Made by a program: the position numbers and the translations under genes
In this document: positions 7,363 through 22,866 of the stretch, in pieces
Layout of the letters: each line of letters begins with the position of its first letter
Position numbering within the stretch: position 1 is the stretch's first letter
Assembly: GCA_965649115.1 (NCBI GenBank)
Contig: CBFGJN010000021.1
Coordinates: 1 to 27,736, forward strand
Source: a candidate division WOR-3 bacterium
GTDB lineage: Bacteria > Hydrothermota > Hydrothermia > LBFQ01 > DSFT01
Direction: 5' to 3'
DNA: 27,736 nucleotides
Notes under the pieces: generated by a model
Told to the model about the DNA's origin: nothing
Database searches by the model: none
What the model saw: the letters and a program-made list of their open reading frames with translations, nothing else

Positions 7363-7397
7363 ACAAAAGATTGTTTAATGCCTTAAAATTTTTAAAA

Positions 7398-8282
7398 TTG
7401 ATGTCCAATTTTTCACTATTTGATAGTAATGAAATTTTTAAAATTTTCTTTGATTATATAAAAAATAAATATGAATTTAAGGATTTGGGAAATCGTTTTA
7501 TTATTAGAAAGGTTGGAAGAATAAAACGACTTCATTATGCTATTGATGATTTAGTAGATTGGTGGGATTTGGATATTAAAAAAGATGAATTAGAATATAT
7601 GTTAAAAAATGAAATTTATACAAAAGCGGTTTTTAAGAATATATTGGAGTTCTCTAATATAAAGCAAGTTCTTGATAATTTATCAATTAAACCAAAGAAG
7701 GTTAGTTTTTCAAAGGTTTATTATATTAGTTTTGAAGATATTAAAGATGAGCAAGATTTATATAAATCTTTGAGCTACAACCAAAGAAGGAACATAAAAA
7801 AATACTTAAATAGATTAAGGAAAATAGATTTTGTTTTTGAGGGAATAAAAGATTACAAATTGGTTTTAAATGAAGCTATTAATTTAATAACTATCAGACA
7901 TAAGGAAACTTATTGGAATGATCCATTATACATTCAAACTATGGAAAAATCTCTAAATTTTTTTAATAGTAAAGGAATGTTAGAAACATTTGTCATGAAA
8001 AGCAAAGGCGACATTATGAGTATCAATATAACACTTGTGTTTGAGAAAAGAGCCTTTTGGTGGATAACCGCTTTTAATGATAAATACAATTATTTTTCAC
8101 CATCAAGAATCAGTGTTTGGTATATGTTAAATTATTATTTAAATAAAGGATTCAAAGAATTCAACTTCATGAAAGGAGAAGCAGAGTATAAAACACTTTG
8201 GACAAAGAAATACTACAAATTGTATAGATATGAGTTTGAAAATCCAAATTTAATAAAAAAAGTTTTTTCGTTTTTTATTTAA
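7398..8282 (+). CDS. GNAT family acetyltransferase (CelD/BcsL, Acetyltransf_6-like)
   Basis: RRNIKKYLNRL, FSPS and FNFMKGEAEYK..W C-terminal motif; start TTG 7398 or ATG 7401 after TAAAAT at 7384. Confidence 0.7.
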   Translation: MMSNFSLFDSNEIFKIFFDYIKNKYEFKDLGNRFIIRKVGRIKRLHYAIDDLVDWWDLDIKKDELEYMLKNEIYTKAVFKNILEFSNIKQVLDNLSIKPKKVSFSKVYYISFEDIKDEQDLYKSLSYNQRRNIKKYLNRLRKIDFVFEGIKDYKLVLNEAINLITIRHKETYWNDPLYIQTMEKSLNFFNSKGMLETFVMKSKGDIMSINITLVFEKRAFWWITAFNDKYNYFSPSRISVWYMLNYYLNKGFKEFNFMKGEAEYKTLWTKKYYKLYRYEFENPNLIKKVFSFFI

Positions 8283-8406
8283 ATATTTTTCTTTTTGTAA
8301 TTTTAGTTAGTAAGCATTTAATTAGGAAGAAATTTAATGAAAACAAAAACACCTGTTTATTGCGGGACAAAGTAAATAAAATTATTTAAAACTATTGGTT
8401 TAATAG

Positions 8407-8768
8407 TGCTTTGTCTAGCAAGTAGTGTTAAGTATAAGAATGGGAATTTTAAAGCCGTAGGCTTATTTAGTAGGGTGGGTGGGAAAATATAGAAAAATAT
8501 GTATTTTTAGAGTTGCTTTTAAAATGTAACTGGATAGGAAGAAAGTTCTCCGCCAAAGACTAAAATAAAAAATAATTAATAGATAGCGAACTTCCTGCCG
8601 AAAAAAATTTTTCTTGCTTTAATACTGAGATTTTATCGTAGTTCTTATGGGGGATTATAGGGGACAAAGTCCCCCATAGTAAAAGTTAGGGTTTTTAAAA
8701 TTGGGAAATTAAGAGGGCGAAGTTTTATAAGCCGAAGCCTTAAATATAGGGTGTGTGGGAAAAATAAT
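8407..8768 (+). repeat. Cluster of partial copies of the element
   Basis: Left TIR at 8407, hairpins at 8452-8464, 8660-8674 and 8729-8741, AGGGTG(G/T)GTGGGAAAA twice. Confidence 0.65.
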
Positions 8769-8971
8769 TGCTTTGTCCAATAAATATATCAGATTATTGA
8801 TTATCAATAACTTACTAAAATTTTTCAAAACCAGTTTATTTTATTGGGGGTCTTTAAAGGGGGCAAAGCCCCCCTTGCCGAAATATGGGCATTTTAAAGG
8901 CGAAGCCTTGAATACAGGGTGGGTGGGGAAAACAAGAAAAATAAATAGTTTTAGAATTATTAGACAAAGTA
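8769..8971 (+). mobile_element. Full-length ~203-bp MITE/REP-like element
   Basis: TGCTTTGTCCAATAA ... TTATTAGACAAAGTA; colinear with 27442-27646 along its whole length. Confidence 0.75.
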
Positions 8972-9005
8972 GAAAATAAGAATTTTTTGCTTTAAAATTT
9001 TAATT

Positions 9006-9698
9006 ATGAAAGAAGTAAAAATTCTATTTGATAATCAGTATAAAACTTATGGCAAAAATCTTCCACAAATTTGGCTTTATTCAAATCTCATTGAAAACTA
9101 TTATTTGAGAAATATAATTGATTCTATTAAGCCAAAACTGATACTTGATGCTGGATGCGGCGTTGGTCTAAAACTTGAAAATTTAAGAAATTACAATGTT
9201 ATTGGATTTGATTATTCATTTGAAGCTGTGAAAATTTGTAAGAATGATAAATTCAAAGTTGTTCAAGCAAGTGTTCATCAAATCCCATTCAAAAATGAGA
9301 TATTTGATTTTGTATTTTCTTTTCAAGTTATACAACATCTTCCAAATTGGGATTATATTAGCTTAGCTTTTAAAGAAATTTCAAGAGTTTTAAAAAAGGA
9401 TGGATATTTTTTAACAATAAATTATAGACTTGGTGGAAGATTAAAAGAAAGATATATGCCTATTAAAGAGGATGATAAAACATTACATAGATGGGCATTT
9501 GATTTTAAAGATTATGAAAACCTAGCAAAAGAAAATCATTTAGAAATTATAAAAATTGGAACAATTTTAAATTTAAAACCAAAAGGTATTGGAAAATTTC
9601 CATTTTTAAAGAAGTTTTATCAGTTTGCTGACTATCAAATGTTTAAATTTGGTTATAAAAGAGGCCTTTATTTAATTGGTTTATTTAGAAAGATATAA
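9006..9698 (+). CDS. Class I SAM-dependent methyltransferase
   Basis: ILDAGCGVG, GFDYS, IPFKNEIFDFV and EISRVLKKDG motifs. Confidence 0.9.
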   Translation: MKEVKILFDNQYKTYGKNLPQIWLYSNLIENYYLRNIIDSIKPKLILDAGCGVGLKLENLRNYNVIGFDYSFEAVKICKNDKFKVVQASVHQIPFKNEIFDFVFSFQVIQHLPNWDYISLAFKEISRVLKKDGYFLTINYRLGGRLKERYMPIKEDDKTLHRWAFDFKDYENLAKENHLEIIKIGTILNLKPKGIGKFPFLKKFYQFADYQMFKFGYKRGLYLIGLFRKI

Positions 9699-9824
9699 AT
9701 TCTTAATATATTCCTTGATTTTATTGGGGTAAGGCTAAAAAGTATAGCTTTAAGTCTTTGATTATAGATATAGGATGGGACAAAGCAAAAAACTTTTTAT
9801 CTATCCTTTAAAATTTTAAAACTT

Positions 9825-11276
9825 ATGAAGAAAAAACTGTTAATCATTTCCATCTTAGTGCTTAGTGGAATAGCAATTGGAATGGTAATAAGTTCAAACT
9901 TAAATATCTTCAATAAGGCAGTTGCACAAACTAACCAAACTGAACAAACTCCTCAAAAAACACTATCAGATATTCAAGAAGGATTTACACAAATTGCACA
10001 AACTGCAATACCAAGCGTTGTAAATATATCCGCTACTAATCAAAAAAGAATCAAAAGTTCAAGTGAATTTGAAGAATTTTTCAAAAAGTTTTTTGGAGAA
10101 CCATTTGAATTTCCTGAAATACCAAGGAGTTCTCTTGGTTCTGGATTTATATTTAGAAAAGATGGAAACACCTATTATGTAATGACAAACCATCATGTTA
10201 TTAAGGACGGGGATCAAATAAAAATTACATTAAGTGATGGAACAACAATAGAAAATGTAAAAATTGTAGGTTCTGATCCAAGAACTGACATAGCAGTTTT
10301 GAAATTTGAAAGTAAGAAAGATTTACCTGTTTTAAAACTTGGAAATTCAGATGAGGTAAAAGTTGGTCAATGGGCAATAGCAATAGGTAGTCCCTTTGGT
10401 CTATCTTCAACAGTCACAGTTGGAATAATTAGTTCAGTTCACAGAAAAAATATAGCACTTCCAGAAGGACCAGATTACCAAGATTTCTTACAAACTGATG
10501 CAGCAATAAACCCAGGAAATAGTGGAGGACCATTATTAAACATTAAAGGTGAGGTAATAGGTGTCAATACAGCTATTGCTACACCAACGGGAGCATTCGC
10601 AGGAATTGGTTTCGCTGTTCCTATAAACTTAGCAAAAAATGTTGCAGAGCAACTCATTTCAAAAGGAAAAATAGAAAGAGGATACTTAGGTATTAGAATT
10701 CAAGATTTAACACCAGAATTGGCACAAGCAATGGGTTTAAAGGAAGAGGGTGGAGCAGTTGTAAATCAAGTAATAAAAGGCGAAGCAGCTGACAAGGCAG
10801 GAATAAAAGAAGGCGATGTTATTGTTGAAGTTGATGGGAAAAAAGTTAAAGATGCTAATGATTTAAGATTATATATCGGTTCTTTACCACCTGGAAAAGA
10901 AGTTCAATTGAAAATTTATAGAGATAAAAAATTCTTAACACTAAAAGTTAAACTTGGAAAAATGCCCGAACAATTATCACAAGCCCCATCAATTGAAGAA
11001 GAAAGTCAAGAAACTTCAAAGACATCAAGTTGGCTTGGAATGACGGTTATTGAAAGAGATAATAATGTTGTTGTAGTATCTTCAAAAGATAAAGCATTTG
11101 AAATGGGCATAAGAGAAGGAGATATTATTAGAAAAATTGGAGATGTAGAAATAAATTCACTAAATGATTTTGAAGATGCCAAAAAGAAATACGAAAAATC
11201 TGATAAACCTGTTCTAATAGTTGTTGAAAAAGATGGGGTAAAAAGATTCTTAGCAATCACACCAAGTTCAAGTTAA
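9825..11276 (+). CDS. degP: DegP/HtrA (Do family) periplasmic serine protease with two PDZ domains
   Basis: Signal/TM N-terminus, GSGFI, TNHHV, DIAVLK, QTDAAINPGNSGGPL and two PDZ regions. Confidence 0.93.
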   Translation: MKKKLLIISILVLSGIAIGMVISSNLNIFNKAVAQTNQTEQTPQKTLSDIQEGFTQIAQTAIPSVVNISATNQKRIKSSSEFEEFFKKFFGEPFEFPEIPRSSLGSGFIFRKDGNTYYVMTNHHVIKDGDQIKITLSDGTTIENVKIVGSDPRTDIAVLKFESKKDLPVLKLGNSDEVKVGQWAIAIGSPFGLSSTVTVGIISSVHRKNIALPEGPDYQDFLQTDAAINPGNSGGPLLNIKGEVIGVNTAIATPTGAFAGIGFAVPINLAKNVAEQLISKGKIERGYLGIRIQDLTPELAQAMGLKEEGGAVVNQVIKGEAADKAGIKEGDVIVEVDGKKVKDANDLRLYIGSLPPGKEVQLKIYRDKKFLTLKVKLGKMPEQLSQAPSIEEESQETSKTSSWLGMTVIERDNNVVVVSSKDKAFEMGIREGDIIRKIGDVEINSLNDFEDAKKKYEKSDKPVLIVVEKDGVKRFLAITPSSS

Positions 11277-12073
11277 TGCGAAAATTACTAATTCTAACAA
11301 TAATTTTAACAATTTTTTTATTAACACTTGGTGTAATAACATCAGCATTTGGTGCATGTCTTGGTTGTCCTGATTGGCCATTATGTTATGGCAGTATCCT
11401 ACCACCAGAAACTATAACCGCTAAACTTGAATACTATCATAGAATTTTTGCTGGAATTGTAGGAATTTTATCATTTATAATAGCTATTGGCTATTATAAA
11501 AATCAAAAAAAACTATCAACTTTACTTATAATTTTAATAACTTCACAAATTCTGCTTGGGGGTTTAACCGTCCTCTTAAAAATGCCTTTCATTATATCGA
11601 TCTCACATGCTATTCTTGGAATTTTAACATATATAACATTAATTCTATTACTTAAAGAGAATTTTAATTTTGAAAAAAATTTTTGGACATTAGCATTTAT
11701 ATTAACTTTTATCTATTATATATGGGGAGCAATTGTTGATAAAACAGCATCAAGTTTAGCCTGTGAAAATATCCTCTGCATCTCTTCAAATCTAACTGAA
11801 ACAAAAGTTATCATTCAATTAATATATCAACTAATTGGTTTATCAATAATTTCCATATCTTTAATTTCAATTTATAAATTTAATTTAAAAAAGTTAATTT
11901 TTCTTATTCTTGCTATCCTTCTTTTCATTTTAAATTATCTTATTATAAAAAGTTTATTAAGCGTTTCTATGATTACTGCTCATTACTTAATTTTGTTAAT
12001 TACTTTAAGTTTCGCACTAACAAATTCAATTAAAAAAGTAGAATTAAGAAACCTAAAAACATCAGAAATTTAA
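11276..12073 (+). CDS. COX15/CtaA heme A synthase family membrane protein (divergent)
   Basis: GACLGCPDWPLC, EYYHR and SHA motifs; about 8 TM helices. Confidence 0.7.
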   Translation: MRKLLILTIILTIFLLTLGVITSAFGACLGCPDWPLCYGSILPPETITAKLEYYHRIFAGIVGILSFIIAIGYYKNQKKLSTLLIILITSQILLGGLTVLLKMPFIISISHAILGILTYITLILLLKENFNFEKNFWTLAFILTFIYYIWGAIVDKTASSLACENILCISSNLTETKVIIQLIYQLIGLSIISISLISIYKFNLKKLIFLILAILLFILNYLIIKSLLSVSMITAHYLILLITLSFALTNSIKKVELRNLKTSEI

Positions 12074-12758
12074 GAATTTTTGAAAGAATTCTTTCGGAAA
12101 ATAAATCTAAAAGGTAAAAAAAGAAAATTATTCCCGTAAAAATTCCATATAAAAAAAAGTAAAAATTACTTAAAGTGATTGAAGCAAAAATCAAAGATAA
12201 AAATAAAAAAATTAGCAAAAACCTTAATAAAATTCTCGTTTTATTTTTTGAAATAGAAATAGCTATTGTATTTCTAAATCCAAAATCATAATCATAATCA
12301 ATGTAGCTTTTCACAATCTCCCTTATAACATTAAAAAGAAATGAAAAAATTATTAAATAAAATAATTCCTTTTTAAAACCAAAAACAATTCCCAAACTTG
12401 AAACACCTATTGAAATAATCAAACTTGTAATTAAAAATCCAAAAGGCTTTTTACTTCCAAAAATGTTATAATAACTAATTAAAATAAACATCAATAAAAA
12501 TAAAAGAAAAAGCTTTATTTCAATAAAAAAAGAAATGATAAGTGAAACAAATAAAATCAAAAACTGATAAAAAGGACTTAAAATTACTCTTTTTATACCC
12601 TTTTTAGCATCAATTTCTTTATCAAAATAATCATTTTGTAAATTAGCAAAAATTATCAAAAATGATGAAGATATAGCAAACAGTAAAGTTTTTATTGAAA
12701 TTTTATGAGCATATAACAAAATTAACAAAATTGTAATAACAACATTTAAAAATCGCAT
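12030..12758 (-). CDS. UbiA family prenyltransferase, DGGGP synthase-like
   Basis: NDYFDKEID first Asp-rich motif; REIVKSYIDYDYD resembles the REIIKDIED..GD second motif; polytopic membrane protein. Confidence 0.7.
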   Translation of the reverse strand: MRFLNVVITILLILLYAHKISIKTLLFAISSSFLIIFANLQNDYFDKEIDAKKGIKRVILSPFYQFLILFVSLIISFFIEIKLFLLFLLMFILISYYNIFGSKKPFGFLITSLIISIGVSSLGIVFGFKKELFYLIIFSFLFNVIREIVKSYIDYDYDFGFRNTIAISISKNKTRILLRFLLIFLFLSLIFASITLSNFYFFLYGIFTGIIFFFYLLDLFSERILSKILKFLMFLGFLILLF

Positions 12759-12761
12759 CTA

Positions 12762-14696
12762 TTAAATAAAATATAAAAATCCTTTTTTCAAGAGTTCTTT
12801 ATAATCCTCTTTACTTAAATGTATAAAATTCAAGAATTTATCAGCATAATGAACAGGAGCAGGACATTTAATACTCATATATTCATAATTCACGGAAGAA
12901 TAATTTAATCTTGTTAAATTGTATAAAATTTGAATAATTTCTTCATTTAATTGAATTTTATTAATTTGACCATTTTTTATTAAATAAACTTGCTCAATTT
13001 TCAAGGGTTTTTCATTTTTTGTATTTTTTATTTTATGGGGAAGCAAGAAAATTAATTTACCAAAATTTAAGTAAATCCCATAGTCAGAACTATTTAGGAA
13101 AGTTAAATGATTTTTAATAATTCCAATAATTAAAATTTCACAAAGATAATCTCTTGAAATTTCATCTAATTTTTCTAATTCATCCTCATAAATTCTACCA
13201 TCTCTTAATATCAAAAATTTCCTATTTTCCAATTGAATATATTCTTTATTTTTTAATTTTTCAATAATAAAATTTATGTTAATTTTTTCACCTTTTTGAG
13301 GAATTGATATTGGAACAATAGTTTTTAAAATACCCGATGAATCATAAATGATAGCACATCCTCCATAATTAACATTTTCTTTTCTACTAACATCAAGTCC
13401 AATTATATAATCATAAGGAACTTTACTTTCAAGAGCAAAATATCTAATTCCAATTTTATGTGATATTTGAAAAATGATATTTCTTTTAGCATATTCCCAA
13501 TTCTTTGAATTTATTGTTTCAATATCTACAAATTGAGAAATATAATTTTTTTCTAATAAACCAACTTTTATTTTTTCATAATTATTTGTTCCAAAAATAA
13601 TAGCAAGACCAAAGTTATTTGCTTTTTGAATTCTATCTAAAATTTTATCCTCAAATCTAATAAATTCAGTATCAAAATTAATTTGAAATTTTTCTCTAAG
13701 TTCATTTAATAAATTTTGTGCTTCTGATTTTAAATTTATATCATTCATTATAATATAGGTTTTTATTGTTTCACCTTTTAAAGGATTTTCATATGGATAG
13801 TAAGAAAAAATTTTATTTGTTGCTTTAATTTCTTTATTGTTTCCTTCTTTATCCTTGACAATTAAATTAGGTAATTTTAGTTTTTTAGAAGGCAATTTCA
13901 ATGGTTCTTTTTCTACAAATGATAATTTTTTAACAATATCAATAATTTTTTTCATTCTCTCTTCATTAGAAATTCTTATTTCTTTCATAATTTTTCTTGA
14001 AATATCAGTTCGCTTAATATCAGAGAAATTAAAAACTTTATAGCAAAATTGAGGTAAATAAGGATAATCATTTTCTGCAAGAATTATCTGTTGTTCGCAA
14101 TTAATTTCTTCAAAAATTTCATATTTTTCTTTTAGATATTTTTCAATTTCCTTTATTTTATCTTTATTATTTGGCAATTTCTCTTTAACTTCATGAACCC
14201 TACTTTTGTTATATTTAAATATAAATCTATCGCCTTCTTTAAAATCTGTTTCAAGCATAGATTTTTTTAAACAAATTCTATATTTAAAATTTAAATTCAA
14301 ATAAAAATTATCTTTTTCTTTCAAAATATCAAACTTAACATAAGGAATAATTACATAATTTTCAATATAAATTTCTTTAAATTTTGAAAATAATTTTTCT
14401 GAAAGAGAATAACCATATCGTAAATAACCTTCTATATGATTTTGTGTTATTTTAGATTTATTTAAGTTTTCCTCCCTTATAGGTTTTAATCCAGATTTAT
14501 TTCCTAAGGGAAAAATTGTGGAAATGATTTTTTTATCTTCATCTTCAACATTTCCATAGTGTTTTAACCTATAAAAGGTCTTTTTTCCTTCCTCCTCATT
14601 TAAAATTATTTGGTAATAATAAAATTTTTTTAAGTTATTATCATTGATAAGAGCTTCCATATTTATTTTAAATAAATTGAGTTGAACTTCTTTCAT
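12762..14696 (-). CDS. ago: Long prokaryotic Argonaute (pAgo), predicted active slicer
   Basis: PIWI motifs DYIIGLD(435), GE(470), LRD(499)G, PAPVHYAD(619); MID Y373/K377/Q388/K414; YPYLPQFC PAZ-end motif; C-terminal GFLYFI. Confidence 0.93.
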   Translation of the reverse strand: MKEVQLNLFKINMEALINDNNLKKFYYYQIILNEEEGKKTFYRLKHYGNVEDEDKKIISTIFPLGNKSGLKPIREENLNKSKITQNHIEGYLRYGYSLSEKLFSKFKEIYIENYVIIPYVKFDILKEKDNFYLNLNFKYRICLKKSMLETDFKEGDRFIFKYNKSRVHEVKEKLPNNKDKIKEIEKYLKEKYEIFEEINCEQQIILAENDYPYLPQFCYKVFNFSDIKRTDISRKIMKEIRISNEERMKKIIDIVKKLSFVEKEPLKLPSKKLKLPNLIVKDKEGNNKEIKATNKIFSYYPYENPLKGETIKTYIIMNDINLKSEAQNLLNELREKFQINFDTEFIRFEDKILDRIQKANNFGLAIIFGTNNYEKIKVGLLEKNYISQFVDIETINSKNWEYAKRNIIFQISHKIGIRYFALESKVPYDYIIGLDVSRKENVNYGGCAIIYDSSGILKTIVPISIPQKGEKININFIIEKLKNKEYIQLENRKFLILRDGRIYEDELEKLDEISRDYLCEILIIGIIKNHLTFLNSSDYGIYLNFGKLIFLLPHKIKNTKNEKPLKIEQVYLIKNGQINKIQLNEEIIQILYNLTRLNYSSVNYEYMSIKCPAPVHYADKFLNFIHLSKEDYKELLKKGFLYFI

Positions 14697-14747
14697 ATTG
14701 AAATTTTAAAGTTTTAGGTAAATTTTTTATGCTTTATAATTTTAACT
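14697..14747. promoter_or_regulatory. Back-to-back -10-like promoters for ago and the C25 peptidase
   Basis: Minus-strand TAAAAT at 14703-14708, 6 nt from ATG; plus-strand TATAAT at 14735-14740, 7 nt from ATG. Confidence 0.65.
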
Positions 14748-17700
14748 ATGATTTTCTTTCTCTTAAATTTAACTTTCAATTATAATGACGAAACAATAAA
14801 AAAATTACCTGTTATTTTTGAAGATGGTTATCCTATTCTTCCTTACGACTTTAAAGTTATTGAAGTTCCAAACAACACAAAAAGTATCAAAATAAAAAAT
14901 TTAAGAATTCAAAGAAAGCTTTATAAATCTAATGTTATTCTTCAATACAACGATAAAATCTATTATTTTGATGAAAATCAAAATTTAAAAATAATTGATG
15001 TCCCAAGGGTTCAAATTGGAAATAAATTTCCAAAAGAAGTAGTTGAAGTTAAGTCAATAGGATATTATAGAAATGAGAAATTAACAACAATTTTTATTTA
15101 TCCAATAACTTATGAAAATGGAAATTTATATTTAAATGAAACCATAAGTTTTGATTTAGAATATGAACAATCACAAACAACTTATAACTTAAAGCCTCTT
15201 CCCGATAGTCTTGATTATTTAATTTTAACAATAAGTCTATTTAAAGAACCTTTTGATTCAATCGCTAAATTATCAATTATCAGAGGATTTAGAACATTAG
15301 TCGTTTATATTGATTCAATAAAAGATAATCCTCCAAAAATAAGGAATTTAATAATTTGGGCTTATAGAACATTTGGTATAAAATACGTCCTAATAGGTGG
15401 TGATGCCAGTATCATAAAACCTTGGCGATTCCAGGTAAATTACTATGATGCAGATCCAAACTTACCAACAGGTCCAGATATTCATACAGATTATCCTTAC
15501 TCAGCACTTGATGGAGATTACACAAATGGCTATAAATGGAAAATTGGTGATAGTATAATTGATCCTTATGCAGACATTGGTATAGGAAGATTACCAATAA
15601 CAAATGTTTATGAAGCATATAACTACTATTATAAGTTAAGAGATTGGACCTTCAATTTTGATGGAAACCCTAATGCTTTTGCTTGTCTTGAAGCTGAAAT
15701 TATGTATAATTATTTTGGAGGATATTGTGAAAATATCGTATCTGTTTCAAATATGCCAAGAATAATTAGACTATATGAGCCAAATTTTAATGGAGATTTG
15801 AAACCACAAACGTTATTTGATTCATTAAATATAAATAAGCCTCAATTTTTCTTCTATATTGGACATGCTAATGGTTTTATAATTACATCAAGTTATGCTA
15901 ATCCAACTTATTATGTTGGTTTTAATGAATTTTATAATATGAATTTCAATTATAATGCTCCATACATAGCAATGTTTGGGGGATGTTGGACAGGAGACTT
16001 AGAACACACTGCCTTAATAAAACAAATTCTACTAATGCCAAATAGAGGAGCTATTTTTGGAATTGGAGCAAGCAAGCTTGATAACACAGGTTCTGAAACA
16101 TCAAGAGGAATGGCTTTCTTTTTAGCGTTTAATAATTATAATGCGAAAACAATTGGAGATGCATATATTTATATGGTTATGAATTTTTCAGGTTCATTAT
16201 TTAGCACATATTCAAAACTTAATATGTTTGGAGATCCGACAATTGAACCATATTTAAATGGTAAAAATTACATAAATGCCAATTTCAATAGTTCATTTTC
16301 TGAATCACTTGTAGTAAATACAATTCCTAATTCAAGAGTTTTATTATATGATGGAGAAAACTATATTTTAGCAACCTCCGATAATAGCGGAAAAGCAATT
16401 TTAAGATATTCAAATTCAAGTCCAAAGACACTCTTACTCTCAATATCAAAACCAAGTTATGTTCCATATTATTCTTATGTTAATTATTATCCAAATAATG
16501 TAGTTTTAGATAGCATTACTTTAAATGCAGATTATTTAATTCCTTCAAACAACTATCAAATCAATTTTTATTTAAAGAATTTAAACACAAATAATCAATC
16601 AATAAACTTTAAAATTAAATTTAATAATGCTATTCCTGATAGTATATTTGGAAATCTAAATTTCAATCCTAATGAAGAAAAAACCATCAGTTATAACATA
16701 ACAATAAAACCCAACGCTAAAAATCTAATTGGAAAATTTTATATAAATGATAAACTTATTAGAAGTTTCTCATATTCCGTAGAAAAAGTAACTCTAAAAC
16801 TCGTTGGAGTAAAGTGGGAAAGTGATAGCATAGATTTAGATATATTTAACAATTCTAATGTTAATATCTACACTGTTGAATTAAAACTTCCTGATTTCGG
16901 AATAACTAAAATAATAGATTCCATAATTGCAAAAAACACAACAAATTATACAACAAAACTTCCAAGAATTTCAAATAATCCAAAATTAATAATTTCATAC
17001 GCAGGAAAACAAGACACATACCAATTGAATTTTCAATTACCACTTCCTTCAAATGACAGTTTTTATTTAATACCTCAAAGAGAAGGTATTTTAATAAAAT
17101 TTGATACAACAGATAATAACGCAAGGTTTTACAAAATTTATAGAAGTGAAATTCCTAATGGAAACTATAAATTTGTTGGAATAACTAATGATTTTGCCAA
17201 ATCATATATGGATTACATTGATAGTTTTAAAATTTATTATTATAAAATTTCAAGAATAGACTTTTATTATAATGAAGGACAAATCTCAAATTATAAATAT
17301 CAATCAAAAAATCCTGATTATAGCATTTATAAGCCAACTTATCTTCCAAATCAAGGAGAAGCACCACCTTTTATCTTAAATGACAGCTTTATTTTAGTTT
17401 TTAGTCCAATTTATATGAGTATTTATAATAATAGAGGTATTCCATTAGACGGTTATCCAAAAGAATTAAAATTCCAAGCATTTTCAGGAGTAGTTGCAGA
17501 TATTAATGGAGATGGTTTAGAAGAAGCTATTGTTTCCGCAAGAAAAGATAACAATTCATTTCTATTATCAGTTAATATAAATGAAATTGATACACTATTC
17601 TATTCAAATTTTATCGGTGATATATCAATTTATAATAAAGGTTTAATAATTGCTAACTTTTATAACGATTCACTTCCCGAAATAGCTCTAAAAACTTATT

Positions 17701-18866
17701 ATGCAGATAATAACCATAAGCAAAGAATTATTATATTAGATCCAAGAACAAAAACAATAATAAATGAAATAAATCTATTTAAGGGAAATGTTTCAACAAA
17801 TTGGGATATATCAGCAAGTGATTTTGATAATGATGGATTATATGAAATTGTAAGTTTAGATTCACTTGGAAAACTTCACATTCTAAAAGCAAATGGTCAA
17901 GATATAAATAACTTCCCAATTGATTTAACGCCTTACTTACCTTATAGTCCAGATGCTATTTCCTATTTTTCAAGTGCTATTTATGTCACATATAATAAAG
18001 TTATATGCGGAATTATACAAAATGGACAATTAAGAATTTTCATAATAAATGTTAATAGTGGAACTATTGAAAATGTAATAAATGTAAATTCTTATGTAAA
18101 TAATAATCCAATAGAACCATTTAGTTTATCGCTTGGAGATATTGATAATGATGGAATTGCAGAAATTGTTTTAATAACCTACCATGGTTATTATTCTTCA
18201 AAAAGAATTCTTGTTTTTAAATTAAATGGAAATTTAATTGCTCAATATGTTGGACCTGATGTTGATTGGGTTTGGTATTCACCAGCAAGTATTGCTGATA
18301 TTTTAAATGATAATAAAATGGATTTAGTAATTAGTCTTCCAAGAAGGGTTTTTATTTTAACTTATAATAATGGAAATTTAAATCATTTAGTTGGAACACC
18401 CATAATTTTAGCAGATGATACACTTCCAGAAGGTTATCCTCTCTATTCTCCTATTTTCAAAGATATAAATAATGACAATAAAATTGAAATGTTCGTTTTA
18501 CAATGGTCAAATCCACTATATTCATTTAACTTAGGAAATATAGGAAAAATTGAATGGAATGGAAATAGAGCTAATTTTAGAAATACTGCTGAATATGGAT
18601 ATAAAATTTCAAATAAAGACGAAACAAATTTAAATATCGTAAAATTTAATCATAAAAAGTTTGCTATTGAATTTAATTTAGGAAATTCTGAATTTTACAA
18701 TCTGAAAATATATAATGTTTCAGGAAGATTAATTTATGAAGATAAGGGTCTTATAAAAGGCAAAGGACTAATATCAATAAATTCTAAATTAAATAGAGGA
18801 ATTTACATTATTGATTTTAAGTCAAAAAATCATAATTTTAGAATAAAGGCGTTAAAATTAGATTAA
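14748..18866 (+). CDS. Secreted C25 (gingipain-like) cysteine peptidase with FG-GAP/VCBS repeats and T9SS-type C-terminal domain
   Basis: YVLIGGD, IGRLP, catalytic GH and GC motifs, NMFGDP; repeats ADINGDG, DFDNDG, GDIDNDG; C-terminal IYNVSGRLI...GIYII. Confidence 0.85.
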   Translation: MIFFLLNLTFNYNDETIKKLPVIFEDGYPILPYDFKVIEVPNNTKSIKIKNLRIQRKLYKSNVILQYNDKIYYFDENQNLKIIDVPRVQIGNKFPKEVVEVKSIGYYRNEKLTTIFIYPITYENGNLYLNETISFDLEYEQSQTTYNLKPLPDSLDYLILTISLFKEPFDSIAKLSIIRGFRTLVVYIDSIKDNPPKIRNLIIWAYRTFGIKYVLIGGDASIIKPWRFQVNYYDADPNLPTGPDIHTDYPYSALDGDYTNGYKWKIGDSIIDPYADIGIGRLPITNVYEAYNYYYKLRDWTFNFDGNPNAFACLEAEIMYNYFGGYCENIVSVSNMPRIIRLYEPNFNGDLKPQTLFDSLNINKPQFFFYIGHANGFIITSSYANPTYYVGFNEFYNMNFNYNAPYIAMFGGCWTGDLEHTALIKQILLMPNRGAIFGIGASKLDNTGSETSRGMAFFLAFNNYNAKTIGDAYIYMVMNFSGSLFSTYSKLNMFGDPTIEPYLNGKNYINANFNSSFSESLVVNTIPNSRVLLYDGENYILATSDNSGKAILRYSNSSPKTLLLSISKPSYVPYYSYVNYYPNNVVLDSITLNADYLIPSNNYQINFYLKNLNTNNQSINFKIKFNNAIPDSIFGNLNFNPNEEKTISYNITIKPNAKNLIGKFYINDKLIRSFSYSVEKVTLKLVGVKWESDSIDLDIFNNSNVNIYTVELKLPDFGITKIIDSIIAKNTTNYTTKLPRISNNPKLIISYAGKQDTYQLNFQLPLPSNDSFYLIPQREGILIKFDTTDNNARFYKIYRSEIPNGNYKFVGITNDFAKSYMDYIDSFKIYYYKISRIDFYYNEGQISNYKYQSKNPDYSIYKPTYLPNQGEAPPFILNDSFILVFSPIYMSIYNNRGIPLDGYPKELKFQAFSGVVADINGDGLEEAIVSARKDNNSFLLSVNINEIDTLFYSNFIGDISIYNKGLIIANFYNDSLPEIALKTYYADNNHKQRIIILDPRTKTIINEINLFKGNVSTNWDISASDFDNDGLYEIVSLDSLGKLHILKANGQDINNFPIDLTPYLPYSPDAISYFSSAIYVTYNKVICGIIQNGQLRIFIINVNSGTIENVINVNSYVNNNPIEPFSLSLGDIDNDGIAEIVLITYHGYYSSKRILVFKLNGNLIAQYVGPDVDWVWYSPASIADILNDNKMDLVISLPRRVFILTYNNGNLNHLVGTPIILADDTLPEGYPLYSPIFKDINNDNKIEMFVLQWSNPLYSFNLGNIGKIEWNGNRANFRNTAEYGYKISNKDETNLNIVKFNHKKFAIEFNLGNSEFYNLKIYNVSGRLIYEDKGLIKGKGLISINSKLNRGIYIIDFKSKNHNFRIKALKLD

Positions 18867-18874
18867 AGGGAATT

Positions 18875-18889
18875 GGGGGGAAAGCCCCC
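18875..18889 (+). repeat. Solo GC hairpin (element remnant, possible terminator)
   Basis: GGGGGGAAAGCCCCC just after the C25 peptidase stop; no clear U-tract. Confidence 0.4.
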
Positions 18890-18931
18890 GAGGCATAAGA
18901 ATTTTTTTAAACTTTAAAATTTTGAAAACTT

Positions 18932-19909
18932 ATGCTTAATCTTTTAATTGTTTTAAATGAAGATAGTACTTTAATTGAAGCTATGTATCTTGGACTTAAC
19001 GAGTACTATGACCAATCCTTTGCCTTAATAAATCAAGTTTTAAACAAAAATCCAACATCCATAAAAGCTTATCTATTAAAGGCTATTATTTTAGATTATA
19101 GAATGGACGATTATGGAAATAACATAGGTGAAGATGAATTTTTTGAATGCATAGATAAAGTTATTAAATTTTCTTCATCCTTACTTCAATCGGAGAATAG
19201 AGCAGATGGTTATTTTTTTATAGGTTCAGCCTATGCTTTGAGAGCTTTTAGATATGGGAAAAAAGGAATATATGCACCCATATTAAGTGATATAATAAAT
19301 GGAATTGATTATTTAAATAAAGCTCTTGAAATCAACAAAGAATTATATGATGCTTATTTATTACTTGGATTATATAACTATGCTTCAGATCAATTTCCTT
19401 CATTTGTAAAATTTATTTTAAGAACAGGTGATACAAAAAAAAGAAAGAAACTTGGAATTGAACAATTAGAAATTTCTGCTCAAAAATCAAGATATGTTAA
19501 TGACTTAACAAAATATGCCTTGCTTGAAATTTATTACAGAGAAAGAATGTACAACAAAGCTTATGAAATTGGAAAGGAATTAGTAAAGAAATACAATCAT
19601 TCAAGAAATATAAGATGGATATATGGAAAAAGTTTAAGAGCACTTGGAAAATGGGAAGAAGCAAGAGTTATATATGAAGAATTATTATACCTTATATTAG
19701 ATACAAGGGATTTTGACAAATATCAAATTGTTCTTTCAAGCTATTACACAGCTTTAAGCTATTATACACTTGGAAAATATGAAGAAGCATATCAATTTTT
19801 AAATTTCGCTTATGTTGTAATTTTAGAAAATTTAAATGTGAAAGAATTATTAAAATTAAAACCAAGAGTAGAAAACTTAATGAAAAATATAGAAAGATAC
19901 AAAGGATGA
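18932..19909 (+). CDS. Tetratricopeptide-repeat protein
   Basis: Helical repeats such as KALEINKELYDAYLLLG, LGKWEEARVIYE and LGKYEEAYQFL. Confidence 0.75.
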   Translation: MLNLLIVLNEDSTLIEAMYLGLNEYYDQSFALINQVLNKNPTSIKAYLLKAIILDYRMDDYGNNIGEDEFFECIDKVIKFSSSLLQSENRADGYFFIGSAYALRAFRYGKKGIYAPILSDIINGIDYLNKALEINKELYDAYLLLGLYNYASDQFPSFVKFILRTGDTKKRKKLGIEQLEISAQKSRYVNDLTKYALLEIYYRERMYNKAYEIGKELVKKYNHSRNIRWIYGKSLRALGKWEEARVIYEELLYLILDTRDFDKYQIVLSSYYTALSYYTLGKYEEAYQFLNFAYVVILENLNVKELLKLKPRVENLMKNIERYKG

Positions 19910-21174
19910 AACTTTTAAGAGAAAAAAATTTAATTCTATTATCAATAGCACAATTTATTTCGCTTTTTGGAGATAGATTAAATAATATGGCATTAGTAGG
20001 AATTCTTGGTTCTTACTATTCACAATCTACCTTCGTTTTTTCGGGTCTTGCTATATTTATTTCTTTACCTTCAATTTTATTTTCACCAATTTCTGGAATA
20101 ATAGCTGATAAACTAAATAGAAAAAAAATTATGATAACCATTGAAATTTTAAGAGCATTAATTGTTTTTTTAATTCCATTTATTTTCATAAAATTCAAAA
20201 GCATACTCCTAATTTATTTTTTAATTTTTCTTCTTTATTCACTTACACTTCCATTCAATAATGCTAAAATGGCATCAATTCCACAAATGGTAAATAACAT
20301 ATATACTGCTAATGCATTTTTGAATACAACAGGTAGACTATCAATAGCTCTTGGAATACTATTTGGTGGAGTAATAGTAGATTTATATATTTGGCAAAAA
20401 TTGGGTTTTGAAGGATGGCAAATAGCGTTTTATATTGATAGTCTAACATATTTAATTTCAGCTTTTATAATACTATTTATAACATTTGAAGAACAAAAGA
20501 AAAATAATTTTGAATTTCAAGAAATAATTGAAGAAGAAAAAAGTTTTTTAAAAAAAATCATTGATGATTTCAAATTTGGTATAGAATATATATCAAAAGA
20601 TAAATTTTTATCGTTTGTTTTTAAATGTATTATTCTAACGATGCTAATTATTTCAATTAGTTATAATGTTTATCTTCCATATTTTCAGCAAAACTTAGGA
20701 TTTGGAACAAAAGGAATAGGAATTGTAGGAGGATTTTTGGGAATAGGTTTTATAATCGGTTCTTCTTTATTTCCGATAATTGCTAAAAAATTGGGAGAAA
20801 TTAAAATAATTGTTATTTCTCATATTATTTTTCCTATATTATTTGTCCTTTCATTGTTCGTTTCTAACTTTTTCGTTTTAATGTTATTGTTTCTAATAGG
20901 TGGTTTTACATTATCAAACTTATTAATATCATATGATACATTTATTCAAGCTGTTTCAGATGATTTTATTAGAGGAAGATTGTTTTCTTTTAAGGAATTT
21001 TTATGGTCATTTTCATTCCTATGTTTTGTTTTCCTAATTGGAATTTTTGGTGAGATTTTGAAAATTTTCTTTAAATTTGAAAACGTAATAAAATCAATTA
21101 TTCTTATTACAAGTATAATTATAATTAGCCTAAATTTAGTTTTTTTTAACAACTTAAAGTCTAACAAGAAATAA
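19906..21174 (+). CDS. MFS transporter (MefA/EntS-like)
   Basis: QFISLFGD, GIIADKLNRKKIM motif A and RGRLFS; about 12 TM helices. Confidence 0.9.
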   Translation: MKLLREKNLILLSIAQFISLFGDRLNNMALVGILGSYYSQSTFVFSGLAIFISLPSILFSPISGIIADKLNRKKIMITIEILRALIVFLIPFIFIKFKSILLIYFLIFLLYSLTLPFNNAKMASIPQMVNNIYTANAFLNTTGRLSIALGILFGGVIVDLYIWQKLGFEGWQIAFYIDSLTYLISAFIILFITFEEQKKNNFEFQEIIEEEKSFLKKIIDDFKFGIEYISKDKFLSFVFKCIILTMLIISISYNVYLPYFQQNLGFGTKGIGIVGGFLGIGFIIGSSLFPIIAKKLGEIKIIVISHIIFPILFVLSLFVSNFFVLMLLFLIGGFTLSNLLISYDTFIQAVSDDFIRGRLFSFKEFLWSFSFLCFVFLIGIFGEILKIFFKFENVIKSIILITSIIIISLNLVFFNNLKSNKK

Positions 21175-21176
21175 TG

Positions 21177-22112
21177 TTAAGTAAAGGCGAAGCCAATTCT
21201 TCTATATTTTTCATATCTCATTTTTATTATTTCATTTATTTCAATTTTATTTAATTCATTTATTTGTTCAATTAAGTGTTGTCTTAAAATTTGATACATT
21301 TCCTTAGGATTCCAATGAGCTCCACCCACAGGTTCTTTAACTATTCCATCAATTACATTAAGTTCCAATAAATCTTTTGAAGTTAATTTTAAAATTTCTG
21401 CTGCTTCACTTGCCTTACTTGAATCTCTAAACAATATAGATGCACATCCTTCTGGTGAAATCACAGAATATATACTATATTCAAGAGCAAAAACCCTATC
21501 AGCAACAGCTATCGCTAGGGCACCACCACTTCCTCCTTCTCCAATAATATAACTAATCGTTCTTGTTTTAATTGAGAGCATTTTCATAATTGAGTAAGCA
21601 ATAGCTGAAAATTGTCCCCTCTCTTCAGCACCAATACCAGGATATGCACCCGGTGTATCAACAAATGTTATTAAAGGTAATTTTAATTTTTCAGCCAATT
21701 CCATAATTCTCATTCCTTTTCTATATCCTTCTGGATGTGGCATACCAAAATTCCTTTCAATTTTTTCATTTGTTGTTCTTCCTTTCTCCTGAGCAATAAA
21801 TGCTATTGAAAATTTTTCTAACTTTCCAATTCCAACGATTATTGAAGGGTCATCTGAAAACAATCTATCACCATGTAGTTCTAAAAATTCATCTAAAATA
21901 TTACTTAAATAATCTATTGATTTTGGCCTATCAGGATGTCTTGCTATCTGAACAATTTGCCATCTTGTTAAATTACTATATATTTGATGTCTTAGTTTTT
22001 CAGCTTCTTGCTTTAAAGAAGATAAATTATCCTTTAAACTTGGATTTCCTTCAAGCTCTTTTATCTTTTCTAAAATATCAAATAAAGGTTTTTCAAAATC
22101 AAGGGGTCTCAT
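21177..22112 (-). CDS. accA: Acetyl-CoA carboxylase carboxyltransferase alpha subunit
   Basis: LDFEKP, ARHPDRP, FGMPHPEGYRK, DTPGAYPGIGAEERGQ, GEGGSGGAL and SVISPEGC; likely ATG at 22112. Confidence 0.97.
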   Translation of the reverse strand: MRPLDFEKPLFDILEKIKELEGNPSLKDNLSSLKQEAEKLRHQIYSNLTRWQIVQIARHPDRPKSIDYLSNILDEFLELHGDRLFSDDPSIIVGIGKLEKFSIAFIAQEKGRTTNEKIERNFGMPHPEGYRKGMRIMELAEKLKLPLITFVDTPGAYPGIGAEERGQFSAIAYSIMKMLSIKTRTISYIIGEGGSGGALAIAVADRVFALEYSIYSVISPEGCASILFRDSSKASEAAEILKLTSKDLLELNVIDGIVKEPVGGAHWNPKEMYQILRQHLIEQINELNKIEINEIIKMRYEKYRRIGFAFT

Positions 22113-22866
22113 AGCTAACACTTATTATATTAGTAAAGTTAAGATATGATGGAATGTAAGCTTTATAGCCAAAGTTTAATTTTTTATATTTTATTATTAA
22201 GAAACCCGAAATTTTTGAATAATCGTAGTCAGGAGTAAGTGAAATTCCAAATTTTAAAATGTTCCTTAAATTATAATTTACTATTAGAAATTTTTCAAAA
22301 TTATAATATTTATTAAATCCAAAAGCAAATTCAAATTGATTGATATTTGAACTTAAACCAAAAGAAAAAATCTGTGGTAGTTCAACTTGATTAGAATATA
22401 TTAATTTTTTGAAACTAAAATTTTCAAAAGAAAATAAAATTGAATTGTTTGAATTTAATTTAAAATGCGAGCTAATTGAAATAAATGGTGAAGCTTTAAT
22501 TTCATCAACAACTCTATTTTCATAATATCCAAAATTTAATCCTAAAAATAACTTTTCTTCAATTTTAAATTTTTTACCCAGTGAAAAATAAATTGAAAAA
22601 GGAGAAAAGTTAAAAACTTGATTATCATTTGGAATTTCATTTTGATAATTAAAAACTCCAAAATCAAAGTACTTGATATTTATTGTAAAAGTCTTATATA
22701 ATACAAATAATTCATATATTTTACTATCAATAAGCCAAAAGTTTATTGATGTTGAAAAAATTTTTTTAGTATCTACAATGGAAGTATTAGTCTTATAATC
22801 TAAAAGTCTATTTGATATTGAATTATCTACCCATAGTTCATTTAATGTAATAATAAAATTTATCAT
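22099..22866 (-). CDS. Putative outer-membrane beta-barrel protein (PorV/PorQ-like)
   Basis: Alternating aromatic/hydrophobic beta-strand pattern throughout; family assignment tentative. Confidence 0.45.
   Translation of the reverse strand: MINFIITLNELWVDNSISNRLLDYKTNTSIVDTKKIFSTSINFWLIDSKIYELFVLYKTFTINIKYFDFGVFNYQNEIPNDNQVFNFSPFSIYFSLGKKFKIEEKLFLGLNFGYYENRVVDEIKASPFISISSHFKLNSNNSILFSFENFSFKKLIYSNQVELPQIFSFGLSSNINQFEFAFGFNKYYNFEKFLIVNYNLRNILKFGISLTPDYDYSKISGFLIIKYKKLNFGYKAYIPSYLNFTNIISVSYETP

Follow-up and report, generated by a model that had tools for sequence, protein, structure and literature searches.

A somewhat smaller member of the MjAgo/PfAgo-like Argonaute group encoded by a hot-spring Hydrothermia bacterium

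The Argonaute locus and its host

The window analysed here, a stretch of 27,736 nucleotides, belongs to a 1.85-Mb MAG of the Hydrothermia/WOR-3 lineage with a GC content of 27.6% and contains 29 open reading frames (ORFs) of at least 80 amino acids. One of them encodes an Argonaute protein (pAgo), present as a single copy in the host genome (Table 1). Its translation matched the PADLOC models PprPIWI (2.5e-66) and pAgo (3.3e-40); the name PprPIWI does not occur in the literature searched. The ORF lies on the minus strand, a point on which the preliminary description of this DNA was silent. The length of the protein, its catalytic tetrad, its MID residues and its GFLYFI C-terminus, all named in that description, were verified position by position with a script, and each of the six motifs quoted there occurs exactly once, at residues 419, 445, 552, 594, 612 and 638.

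Table 1. Features of the Argonaute locus, in positions of the window
Feature	Position	Strand	Basis or remark
pAgo gene, 644 aa (P0001)	12762..14696	minus	ATG at 14696, stop codon 12762-12764; ORF list and translation
Divergent intergenic region, 51 bp	14697..14747	none	between pAgo start and C25-peptidase gene; presumed site of the pAgo promoter
UbiA-family membrane protein gene, 242 aa	12030..12758	minus	Pfam UbiA 2.6e-11; starts 3 nt past the pAgo stop
N-terminal domain core, residues 18-68	14493..14645	minus	MjAgo_N-like Pfam match of the M. fervens protein P0011, mapped via alignment A1
PAZ domain, residues about 145-222	14031..14264	minus	mapped from the Ago_PAZ_arc match of the M. fervens protein
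MID 5'-phosphate pocket Y373, K377, Q388, K414	13455..13580	minus	codons 13578-13580, 13566-13568, 13533-13535, 13455-13457
MID-PIWI region, residues 364-630	12807..13607	minus	counterpart of the Pfam Piwi match in the M. fervens protein; contains the DEDD tetrad
DEDD tetrad codons	D435 13392-13394, E470 13287-13289, D499 13200-13202, D619 12840-12842	minus	script
C-terminal GFLYFI, residues 639-644	12765..12782	minus	translation

The gene that follows pAgo encodes a UbiA-like membrane protein and is probably co-transcribed with it. Homologues of this gene were found in all four congeners (54-67% identity), in three of which pAgo was not found and the gene is preceded either by an S9 peptidase gene and a small ORF or by a gene for a T9SS-tailed protein; no PADLOC match was obtained for it. 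Because its distribution in these three congeners is independent of pAgo, it was rejected as a pAgo partner, and the UbiA-like gene is a host gene. The preliminary description had reported no nuclease, helicase, cas or integrase gene nearby, and none of the corresponding domains was detected in the 11 ORFs between 7371 and 22866 that were scanned. Neither PADLOC nor Pfam pointed to a partner among the neighbours, in agreement with a stand-alone gene. An effector-coupled pAgo of the short, SPARTA-like or long-B type, with an inactive PIWI domain and a co-inherited effector, does not fit this locus, where the tetrad is intact and the UbiA-like gene occurs without pAgo in the three congeners.

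The setting is one of housekeeping genes and not a defence island; pAgos of the sister family adjoin type I R-M genes. Two Cas1 genes are located elsewhere in the genome, in which CRISPR-Cas is present. A host-type promoter had also been claimed, but is not supported by sigma-70-like sites, which were not enriched (31, compared with 25.0 +/- 4.6 in shuffled sequences); the same scan found no terminators.

A reverse gyrase gene in the genome (1223.6 bits against a cut-off of 471.7) marks the host as a thermophile; no archaeal histone was found in it. An F(IVYWREL) value of 0.436 corresponds to about 73 °C, a rough hint only, as the ORF calls were crude; a habitat near 70 °C is probable. At least 95% of the sampled words are present in four runs labelled 'hot springs metagenome', one of which may be the source sample, and the 17 runs listed as holding sampled words include no RNA run and are uninformative on expression. 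Exact-match pieces of contigs X1 and X2 tile the locus (window 10500-16500), and X5 and X6 contribute partial pieces; four joints seen in this comparison, with sides of only 20-21 letters, were taken as spurious.

The GC content of the whole pAgo gene is 20.9%, at the 1.7th percentile of the genome, and that of the UbiA-like gene is lower still (19.6%), whereas the GC3 of pAgo is ordinary (9th percentile). The low GC is therefore attributed to amino-acid make-up, and a recent transfer, as it might be read from base composition, was rejected on the same two grounds.

Domain architecture, active site and guide pocket

The AF2 model of the protein was confident over its full length (pLDDT 90.4, pTM 0.87). 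A comparison of a predicted structure with MjAgo and PfAgo had been proposed in the preliminary description, and it gave a whole-length superposition with the best Z for MjAgo. VIA placed model residues 1-644 on chain residues 5-713 (Z 36.4-36.6, rmsd 3.2, 614-620 residues), with the N-terminal region aligned from residue 1, and Foldseek returned TM values of 0.85/0.82 and an rmsd of 3.7 against the complex of MjAgo with guide DNA. The four domains thus superpose end to end, as in MjAgo (PDB 5g5s/5g5t) and MfAgo (the M. fervens protein, P0011), and the model has the full-length N-L1-PAZ-L2-MID-PIWI architecture.

In phmmer alignments, the four tetrad residues coincide with the GLD, GE, RDG and HYADKF motifs of MjAgo. 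Across the 39 rows of the clade alignment, the tetrad columns hold D in 38, E in 38 and D in 39 rows, followed by D in 32, H in 6 and N in 1, and the pocket columns hold Y in 35, K in 37, Q in 39 and K in 39 rows; all eight residues are intact in each of the six rows of the query family. At the C-terminus, conservation in alignment A1 is 90% or higher for G639, L641, Y642 and F643; the terminal carboxylate of Argonautes reaches into the MID pocket. The available text of PMC6299218 describes the Y/R-K-Q-K motif of MID as 5'-phosphate binding and DEDX as the mark of active PIWI domains in catalytically active long pAgos, the long-A type sensu Ryazansky et al. 2018, and Y373/K377/Q388/K414 and D435/E470/D499/D619 correspond to these two definitions. 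With tetrad and pocket present and Argonautes as its closest solved relatives, the protein is predicted to be a catalytically intact, full-length Argonaute.

The protein is indeed shorter than MjAgo (713 aa) and PfAgo (770 aa), as had been stated. Compactness is no special trait of it, since all domains are present and other clade members have 642, 652 and 662 residues. Relative to MjAgo and MfAgo it lacks about 70 residues; the difference from the M. fervens protein is 74 residues, and the length of 644 residues is explained by roughly ten small loop deletions scattered over N, PAZ, L2 and MID. None lies in PIWI, and beyond residue 369 any deletion relative to P0011 is shorter than 3 aa. Two deletions of eight residues each affect the PAZ domain, after query residues 154 and 196.

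Relatives and history of the gene

The likeness of the protein to MjAgo and PfAgo noted in the preliminary description is real and far beyond chance. Searched with phmmer against PDB sequences, the protein matched 5g5s/5g5t (M. jannaschii Argonaute by entry titles) with an E-value of 6.5e-63 over query residues 79-644, 1u04 (PF0537 of P. furiosus) with 1.2e-49 over residues 340-644, and 8jsi/8wd8 with 2.6e-44, followed at a great distance by KmAgo (9.7e-08) and TtAgo (1.1e-05). In the structural comparison, after MjAgo, VIA Z values were 29.6-33.3 for PfAgo and TtdAgo over the whole model and at most 27.3 for other pAgos. MjAgo, PfAgo and TtdAgo thus stand well above other pAgos in both sequence and fold, which places the protein in the MjAgo/PfAgo-like subgroup, and MjAgo, MfAgo, PfAgo and TtdAgo are its closest solved or characterised relatives by phmmer, Foldseek and VIA. 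Identity is nevertheless only 29-38% to the proteins of the named archaeal subclades and 29-37% to characterised relatives.

With MjAgo and MfAgo the protein shares the DEDD tetrad, the Y-K-Q-K pocket, the HYADKF and LYFI C-terminal motifs, and a stand-alone gene in an AT-rich thermophilic host. Unlike in these two, the host is a bacterium and the protein sits in a deep clade of its own. PfAgo (1u04/1z26/8jpx) and TtdAgo (Thermococcus thioreducens, 8wd8) belong to the same group, with the similarity noted above falling in MID-PIWI, but they have 750-770 residues and an N-terminal half that is barely alignable to the query by sequence. Thermococcus-type rows (P0017, P0019) differ in carrying H as the fourth tetrad residue and F as the first MID residue. 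P0021, a Piwi protein of Thermovibrio sp. with 662 aa, and the clusters P0039 and P0045 (642-652 aa) resemble the query in their small size and intact DEDD and Y-K-Q-K residues, but fall in a different subclade with 27-28% identity to it in A1; the literature searched holds no characterised member among the three. TtAgo, CbAgo, KmAgo, CpAgo and AaAgo share the fold (Z 25-27) and the catalytic logic, although TtAgo and KmAgo are far more distant in sequence and Bacillota-type proteins form the outgroup of the tree.

A search with the Pfam Piwi family (PF02171), which the preliminary description had suggested, did not recover the protein even at an E-value of 10, and neither the MjAgo_N nor the PAZ_arc model matched it directly, whereas MfAgo was matched by all three (Piwi 2.9e-49, PAZ_arc 6.7e-42, MjAgo_N 4.1e-12). 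NCBIfam likewise gave no Argonaute match for the query, the only subfamily member scanned there. The gathering cut-off of PF02171 (28.9 bits) belongs to a detection tool and is not a biological definition, and the miss is attributed to sequence divergence in a very AT-rich genome, fold and tetrad having been established otherwise. We therefore treat the lack of Pfam and NCBIfam matches as low model sensitivity and not as counter-evidence to the Argonaute assignment. It is a practical blind spot, in that Pfam Piwi misses seven of the eight scanned subfamily members (P0005 alone was matched), and such genes will consequently often be annotated as hypothetical.

Phylogenetic trees were built from phmmer matches of the query only, so that labelled long-B or short pAgo references are absent from them. 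The query fell into a group of 41-43 rows (support 99-100) with proteins of M. fervens, Thermococcus and Thermogladius, whose long-A status is taken from the literature; the group also contains the bacterial Thermovibrio protein and many metagenomic ones. In the first tree, the query clade joins an unresolved polytomy. With five Bacillota-type rows as the root, the ingroup splits into the eight-row query clade (support 100) and its sister, the remaining 35 rows (support 88). The stem of the query clade is long (0.65-0.78), and the clade branches outside every named archaeal subclade; the nesting inside an archaeal subclade that a recent archaeal origin calls for was not seen in the trees. On these trees pAgo is part of a small bacterial subfamily that occupies a separate long branch within the MjAgo/PfAgo-like group.

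The proposed acquisition from hyperthermophilic archaea is therefore not supported: with a long-stemmed clade outside the archaeal subclades, low identity, and bacterial and metagenomic members in the group, transfer may have run in either direction. The preliminary description had named, as the outcome that would speak against it, a vertically inherited bacterial clade far from MjAgo and PfAgo; vertical inheritance was found, within part of the genus, but distance from MjAgo and PfAgo was not. A single bacterial order carries at least three separate lineages of MjAgo/PfAgo-type Argonaute in the tree.

Patterns drawn from the query only located one locus in genome contigs and three in metagenomes, distant relatives lying outside such sampling. 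The gene is syntenic in three related records, and protein and profile queries did not find it in three of the four congeners or in either of the two neighbouring-genus genomes. Its long-resident appearance, already remarked upon in the preliminary description, is borne out by the ordinary GC3 and by a dS equal to that of the housekeeping genes on either side. In all six pairwise comparisons dN/dS was 0.30-0.36 (one close pair at a dS of 0.053), which is 7-9 times the value for HtrA, and between near-identical strains pAgo differs about three times more than its flanks. The reading frame is intact in four of five DNA copies (window, L007, L015 and L016), and the fifth, L017, carries a frameshifting 1-nt insertion; the sister-family copy G017 has three stops. 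The frameshift and the failure to find the gene in three congeners indicate that pAgo is dispensable.

Proposed function, alternatives and significance

Taken together, our analysis suggests that the gene likely encodes a functional, stand-alone, full-length MjAgo/PfAgo-like nuclease that would cut DNA with DNA guides in innate defence, and that its presence reflects an early acquisition followed by vertical inheritance in part of one genus. In such a mechanism, a small single-stranded DNA would serve as guide, its 5'-phosphate gripped in the MID pocket by Y373, K377, Q388 and K414 together with a divalent cation and the carboxylate of the C-terminus, and its 3' end held by PAZ. At high temperature and with Mg2+ or Mn2+, the RNase-H-like PIWI site would cut complementary DNA. 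Plasmids or phages entering the cell would be the source of the guides, which may arise by guide-independent 'chopping', an activity reported for MjAgo and PfAgo, and the cellular role would be defence against such invading DNA. The gene would have been acquired long ago and passed on within part of the genus as a fast-evolving, dispensable gene under purifying selection.

This proposal draws on characterised relatives. According to the accessible part of PMC6279821, MjAgo and PfAgo use 5'-phosphorylated DNA guides on DNA targets, chop double-stranded DNA at 75 °C or above, and reduce plasmid content or transformation; MfAgo, the nearest of the named relatives, is reported in the available portion of PMC13554494 to use 5'-phosphorylated DNA guides with Mn2+ or Mg2+ at 55-80 °C. 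Since identity to these enzymes is low, the guides and targets proposed here are extrapolated. The housekeeping setting, the RNA cleavage by MfAgo, the L017 frameshift, the patchiness, the Pfam and NCBIfam misses and the two PAZ deletions count against the proposal.

The same enzyme might instead use a different chemistry, cleaving RNA with DNA guides or taking RNA or 5'-OH guides, with transcripts or RNA genomes as targets. The deep split of the query clade from all characterised relatives and the shortened PAZ region leave room for this, and MfAgo also cuts single-stranded RNA with 5'-phosphorylated DNA guides, as stated in the available text of PMC13554494. However, the canonical 5'-phosphate pocket is intact and differs from the MID-OH type outlined for MpAgo in the accessible part of PMC6299218, and MjAgo, PfAgo, MfAgo, TtdAgo, TcAgo and FpAgo are all DNA-guided DNA cutters in the portions of the literature available, so that we regard another chemistry as unlikely. 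A chromosomal task, with defence as a secondary matter at most, appears quite improbable. TtAgo reportedly resolves or decatenates replicated chromosomes, and a similar co-option would suit the housekeeping setting, the co-divergence of pAgo with its flanks, the ameliorated GC3 and the presence of CRISPR-Cas elsewhere in the genome; against it stand the absence of detectable pAgo from most congeners and from the neighbouring genus, the frameshifted copy, and the rapid divergence relative to HtrA and to the flanks. Patchiness, frameshift and fast divergence typify a dispensable defence-type gene that evolves quickly.

The frameshift, the three stops in the sister-family copy and the patchy distribution could also describe a decaying relic without function, a very improbable reading given the intact frame in the other four copies, the dN/dS values, the conservation of all eight functional residues in the query family and the confident full-length fold. 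Tight adjacency on the same strand and a shared low GC suggested that pAgo and the UbiA-like protein might form a sensor-effector pair, as in short and long-B pAgo systems with membrane effectors. This pairing is exceedingly improbable: its refutation by distribution is largely already in hand, as the UbiA-like gene occurs in all four congeners, behind other genes where pAgo was not found, and has no PADLOC match, and a pAgo that retains its own tetrad needs no effector.

The defence nuclease favoured above adds a member of somewhat smaller size to a well-known family and is not a new kind of system. In the literature searched, no publication reports an Argonaute for Hydrothermia, WOR-3 or Caldifarciminota, though the supplementary pAgo list of PMC6299218 may include a subfamily member; in the one publication mentioning both Argonaute and WOR-3, the bacterial pAgos come, in the text available, from an Aerophobota MAG.

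It is possible, but unlikely, that the protein is the founding member of a deep lineage confined to bacteria and sister to every archaeal Argonaute of the MjAgo/PfAgo type, long kept at a housekeeping locus of an AT-rich thermophile that has reverse gyrase and in which no archaeal histone was found. The histones of M. jannaschii are said to have been proposed as a shield of its chromosome against guide-independent chopping of AT-rich DNA by MjAgo. If such a bacterial sister lineage were real, a host with a genome still richer in AT and without such histones would need another means of telling self from non-self, or chopping would have been lost, or the enzyme would have a chromosomal role, and this type of Argonaute could have moved from bacteria to archaea. 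The three lineages within one order illustrate repeated exchange among thermophiles, in whichever direction. PfAgo, MjAgo, MfAgo, TtdAgo and TcAgo are thermostable and, according to the sections of the literature available, are used in nucleic-acid detection and cloning; the subfamily offers an uncharacterised, slightly smaller scaffold between the hyperthermophilic archaeal and the mesophilic bacterial enzymes.

Architecture and functional residues of the Argonaute

The reading frame given for the Argonaute (pAgo) in the preliminary description was recovered as 644 codons with an ATG start, the only omission there being its strand (minus). A script check found all of the residues named in it (Y373, K377, Q388, K414, D435, E470, D499 and D619) and the C-terminal GFLYFI, and located all six quoted motifs, each at a single site in the protein. 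An NCBIfam scan of the 644-aa protein gave no match, and the Pfam Piwi family (PF02171), named earlier as a way to check the assignment, gave none even at E 10. The protein was matched by the PADLOC profiles PprPIWI (2.5e-66, across residues 60-644) and pAgo (3.3e-40).

When all PDB sequences were searched with phmmer, the likeness to the Argonautes of Methanocaldococcus jannaschii (MjAgo) and Pyrococcus furiosus (PfAgo) was borne out, with matches to MjAgo (5g5s/5g5t; 6.5e-63, residues 79-644), PfAgo (1u04/8jpx; 1.2e-49) and the Thermococcus thioreducens protein TtdAgo (8jsi/8wd8; 2.6e-44), these three identities being taken from PDB entry titles, and with KmAgo (9.7e-08) and TtAgo (1.1e-05) following. 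An AlphaFold2 model built from a 39-row clade alignment was confident (pLDDT 90.4, pTM 0.87), and Foldseek aligned it with the MjAgo-guide DNA complex (TM 0.85/0.82, rmsd 3.7). VIA-align superposed model residues 1-644 end to end onto MjAgo chain 5-713 (Z 36.4, rmsd 3.2, 614 residues), followed by TtdAgo (Z 33.3), PfAgo (Z 32.5) and other bacterial pAgos (at most 27.3); all four Argonaute domains are therefore present. The protein had been called compact, and at 644 aa it is indeed among the smallest of its group, yet its architecture is not reduced: the 74 residues that it lacks compared with the M. fervens protein (MfAgo) are accounted for by some ten short deletions, each of 3-11 residues, which fall in N, PAZ, L2 and MID and spare PIWI, and other clade members have 642, 652 and 662 aa.

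Catalytically active PIWI domains are recognised by a DEDX tetrad, and the guide 5'-phosphate is anchored by Y/R-K-Q-K together with a divalent cation (PMC6299218). In the 39-row alignment, the tetrad positions are D435 (D in 38 rows), E470 (E in 38), D499 (D in 39) and D619 (D in 32, H in 6, N in 1), and the anchoring positions are Y373 (Y in 35, F in 4), K377 (K in 37), Q388 (Q in 39) and K414 (K in 39). All eight are complete in each of the six rows belonging to the small bacterial subfamily that contains this protein, hereafter the query clade. The protein is assigned to the MjAgo/PfAgo-like group of catalytically active long pAgos.

Phylogenetic position and history of the gene

A phmmer search against 1.84 billion representatives yielded only 61 proteins with E <=0.001, including 21 with E <=1e-30. 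Of 20 clusters looked up, five had an organism name on record: M. fervens, Thermococcus thermotolerans, a bacterial Thermovibrio sp., Infirmifilum / Thermogladius calderae and a Bacillota MAG. Two trees of 48 rows each were made by short searches with SH-aLRT support only, with a taxon for a minority of rows and with long-B and short references left out. The first (quick IQ-TREE, LG+C20 PMSF) held all collected proteins of at least 560 aa minus nine cluster duplicates, and placed a six-row query clade (support 100, stem 0.78) in an unresolved polytomy within a group of 41 rows (support 99). The second (LG+G4), rooted on five Bacillota-type rows, left out four long-branch rows, the homologue P0078 and duplicates, and added the homologue P0081 plus four proteins obtained by translating loci. 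Here the query clade (eight rows, support 100) was sister to the other 35 rows (support 88), which include the Methanocaldococcus subclade. A recent archaeal origin, as a form of the proposed acquisition from archaea, is not supported; any ancient transfer may have run in either direction.

pAgo matches were found in 5 of 60 related genomes: one of four in the same genus, none of two in the neighbouring genus, four of the 12 sister-family genomes (an intact gene of 722 aa, a copy with three stops and two fragments), and none of the 42 genomes from ten other families of the class. In the second tree, the copy from sister-family genome G009 groups with the homologue P0015 and the fragment from G017 lies near the Methanocaldococcus subclade; both fall outside the query clade, which on sequence placement gives the host's bacterial order at least three separate lineages of MjAgo/PfAgo-like Argonaute. 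These two copies adjoin type I R-M genes (HsdM, HsdS), and the G017 copy is broken by two TGA stops and one TAA stop. In the G009 protein and P0015, D replaces the catalytic E470 and the HY of HYADKF is missing, so they may possess a variant tetrad.

In the related loci L007, L015 and L017, the gene has the C25 peptidase on one side and the UbiA-like, CtaA and HtrA genes on the other, as far as sequence extends. Between the window and L015, dS is 0.34 for pAgo, 0.39 for HtrA, 0.43 for CtaA and 0.23 for the UbiA-like gene; pAgo therefore co-diverged with its locus. It is a fast-evolving gene under purifying selection, with dN/dS of 0.30-0.36 in all six pairs (HtrA 0.04, CtaA 0.13-0.29, UbiA-like 0.36), and its GC3 of 11.6% is ordinary (9th percentile among 1175 ORFs). 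The L017 flanks are nearly identical to those of L015, but a frameshifting 1-nt insertion splits the L017 pAgo, a copy that could be a true pseudogene or could result from misassembly. With gaps counted as differences, about 1.7% of columns differ between L015 and L017 in pAgo vs about 0.5% across 3.8 kb of flanking sequence, so variation is locally raised in the gene. In-frame indels also occur near codons 105-115.

Coordinates of the features discussed
Feature	Location	Strand	Length	Remarks
CtaA/COX15-like gene	window 11276-12073	+	265 aa	
UbiA-like gene (short UbiA-family)	window 12030-12758	-	242 aa	GC 19.6%, among the lowest-GC ORFs in the genome
pAgo	window 12762-14696	-	644 aa	
C25 (gingipain-type) peptidase	window 14748-18866	+	1372 aa	FG-GAP repeats, weak T9SS C-terminal sorting domain; divergent from pAgo
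ORF without Pfam family	window 22099-22866	-	255 aa	GC 20.6% (low)
pAgo, related locus	L015 774-2708		644 aa	intact
pAgo, related locus	L017 6001-7942		175 + 500 aa	split by 1-nt insertion
pAgo, sister family (G009)	L004 991-3159			
pAgo, sister family (G017)	L003 1612-2913			
Reverse gyrase, host genome (L018)	G000:C5:35459-38617			full-length
Cas1, host genome	G000:C25:21310-22137			
Cas1, host genome	G000:C26:21700-22500			

Genomic neighbourhood and host

Of the 29 ORFs in the window that reach 80 aa, the Pfam and partner scan took in 11, covering 7371-22866: in order, a GNAT acetyltransferase, a methyltransferase, an HtrA-type protease, the CtaA-like gene, the UbiA-like gene, pAgo, the C25 peptidase, a TPR protein, an MFS transporter, AccA and an ORF without Pfam family. 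No nuclease, helicase, cas gene or integrase is among these 11, in agreement with the preliminary description. The C25 peptidase also adjoins pAgo in L007 and L017, where it has 1406 and 1373 aa, respectively.

Since the UbiA-like gene begins only 3 nt past the pAgo stop, it was considered as a candidate partner. It is present in all four congeners, in three of which (genomes 87-94% complete) no pAgo was matched, either with the protein as query or with the profile of the clade. In two of these, G003 and G004, it is preceded by an S9 peptidase and a 177-181-aa ORF, and in the third, G001, by a T9SS-tailed protein of 1161 aa; PADLOC gave no match on the preceding genes in any of the three. The UbiA-like protein is therefore rejected as a partner: it is encoded by a host gene, and pAgo stands alone. 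The CtaA-like and UbiA-like genes converge, overlapping by 44 bp, and both recur as a pair in L007, L015, L017 and the three congeners without a pAgo match; together they may be heme O and heme A synthases, with scores far under the NCBIfam cut-offs.

The host MAG (1.85 Mb, 99 contigs, 94.5% complete, 0.3% contamination), in which the window is the whole of contig C21, carries a reverse gyrase gene of full length (TIGR01054, 1223.6 bits vs a cut-off of 471.7), a hallmark of thermophiles. A crude proteome index suggests growth at about 73 C. At least 95% of the locus's sampled words occur in four 'hot springs metagenome' runs from two studies, which are not independent support because one may be the source sample. 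L007, the only related locus with a name and recorded as 'MAG: Candidatus Hydrothermia bacterium', has the same gene order as the window and a pAgo 56-57% identical; it probably corresponds to contig C11 of the congeneric genome G002. NCBI taxonomy places Candidatus Hydrothermia in class Caldifarciminia, phylum Caldifarciminota, and the class Hydrothermia has been assigned to WOR-3, a phylum found in hot springs and vents (PMC12542636). Given the two Cas1 genes, the host genome probably also has CRISPR-Cas systems outside the window.

Proposed function and meaning

MjAgo and PfAgo use 5'-phosphorylated DNA guides on DNA targets for guide-dependent cutting, chop dsDNA guide-free at >=75 C, and lower plasmid content or transformation (PMC6279821); MfAgo works at 55-80 C with Mn2+/Mg2+ and 5'-phosphorylated DNA guides, and RNA is also cut by it (PMC13554494). 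With architecture, residues and selection established here, we infer by homology which guides and targets the protein uses, over what temperature range it acts and what its biological role is: the protein would most likely load small 5'-phosphorylated DNAs as guides and, once loaded, slice complementary invader DNA at high temperature. Whereas histones have been proposed to shield the M. jannaschii chromosome against MjAgo (PMC6279821), the 94.5%-complete host genome, at 27.6% GC more AT-rich than thermophiles usually are, has no match to archaeal-type histone PF00808, with which a control matched in three archaea.

A literature search for Argonautes in hydrothermae, Hydrothermia, Caldifarciminota or WOR-3 found no such pAgo reported, and the one paper mentioning both Argonaute and WOR-3 takes its bacterial pAgos from an Aerophobota MAG. 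The query clade is a previously undescribed bacterial subfamily of eight sequences, 55-78% identical to the query and all from metagenomes or MAGs, only one of which is recognised by the Pfam Piwi model. The subfamily exemplifies a blind spot in annotation, and its 644-aa member is a candidate thermostable programmable nuclease.
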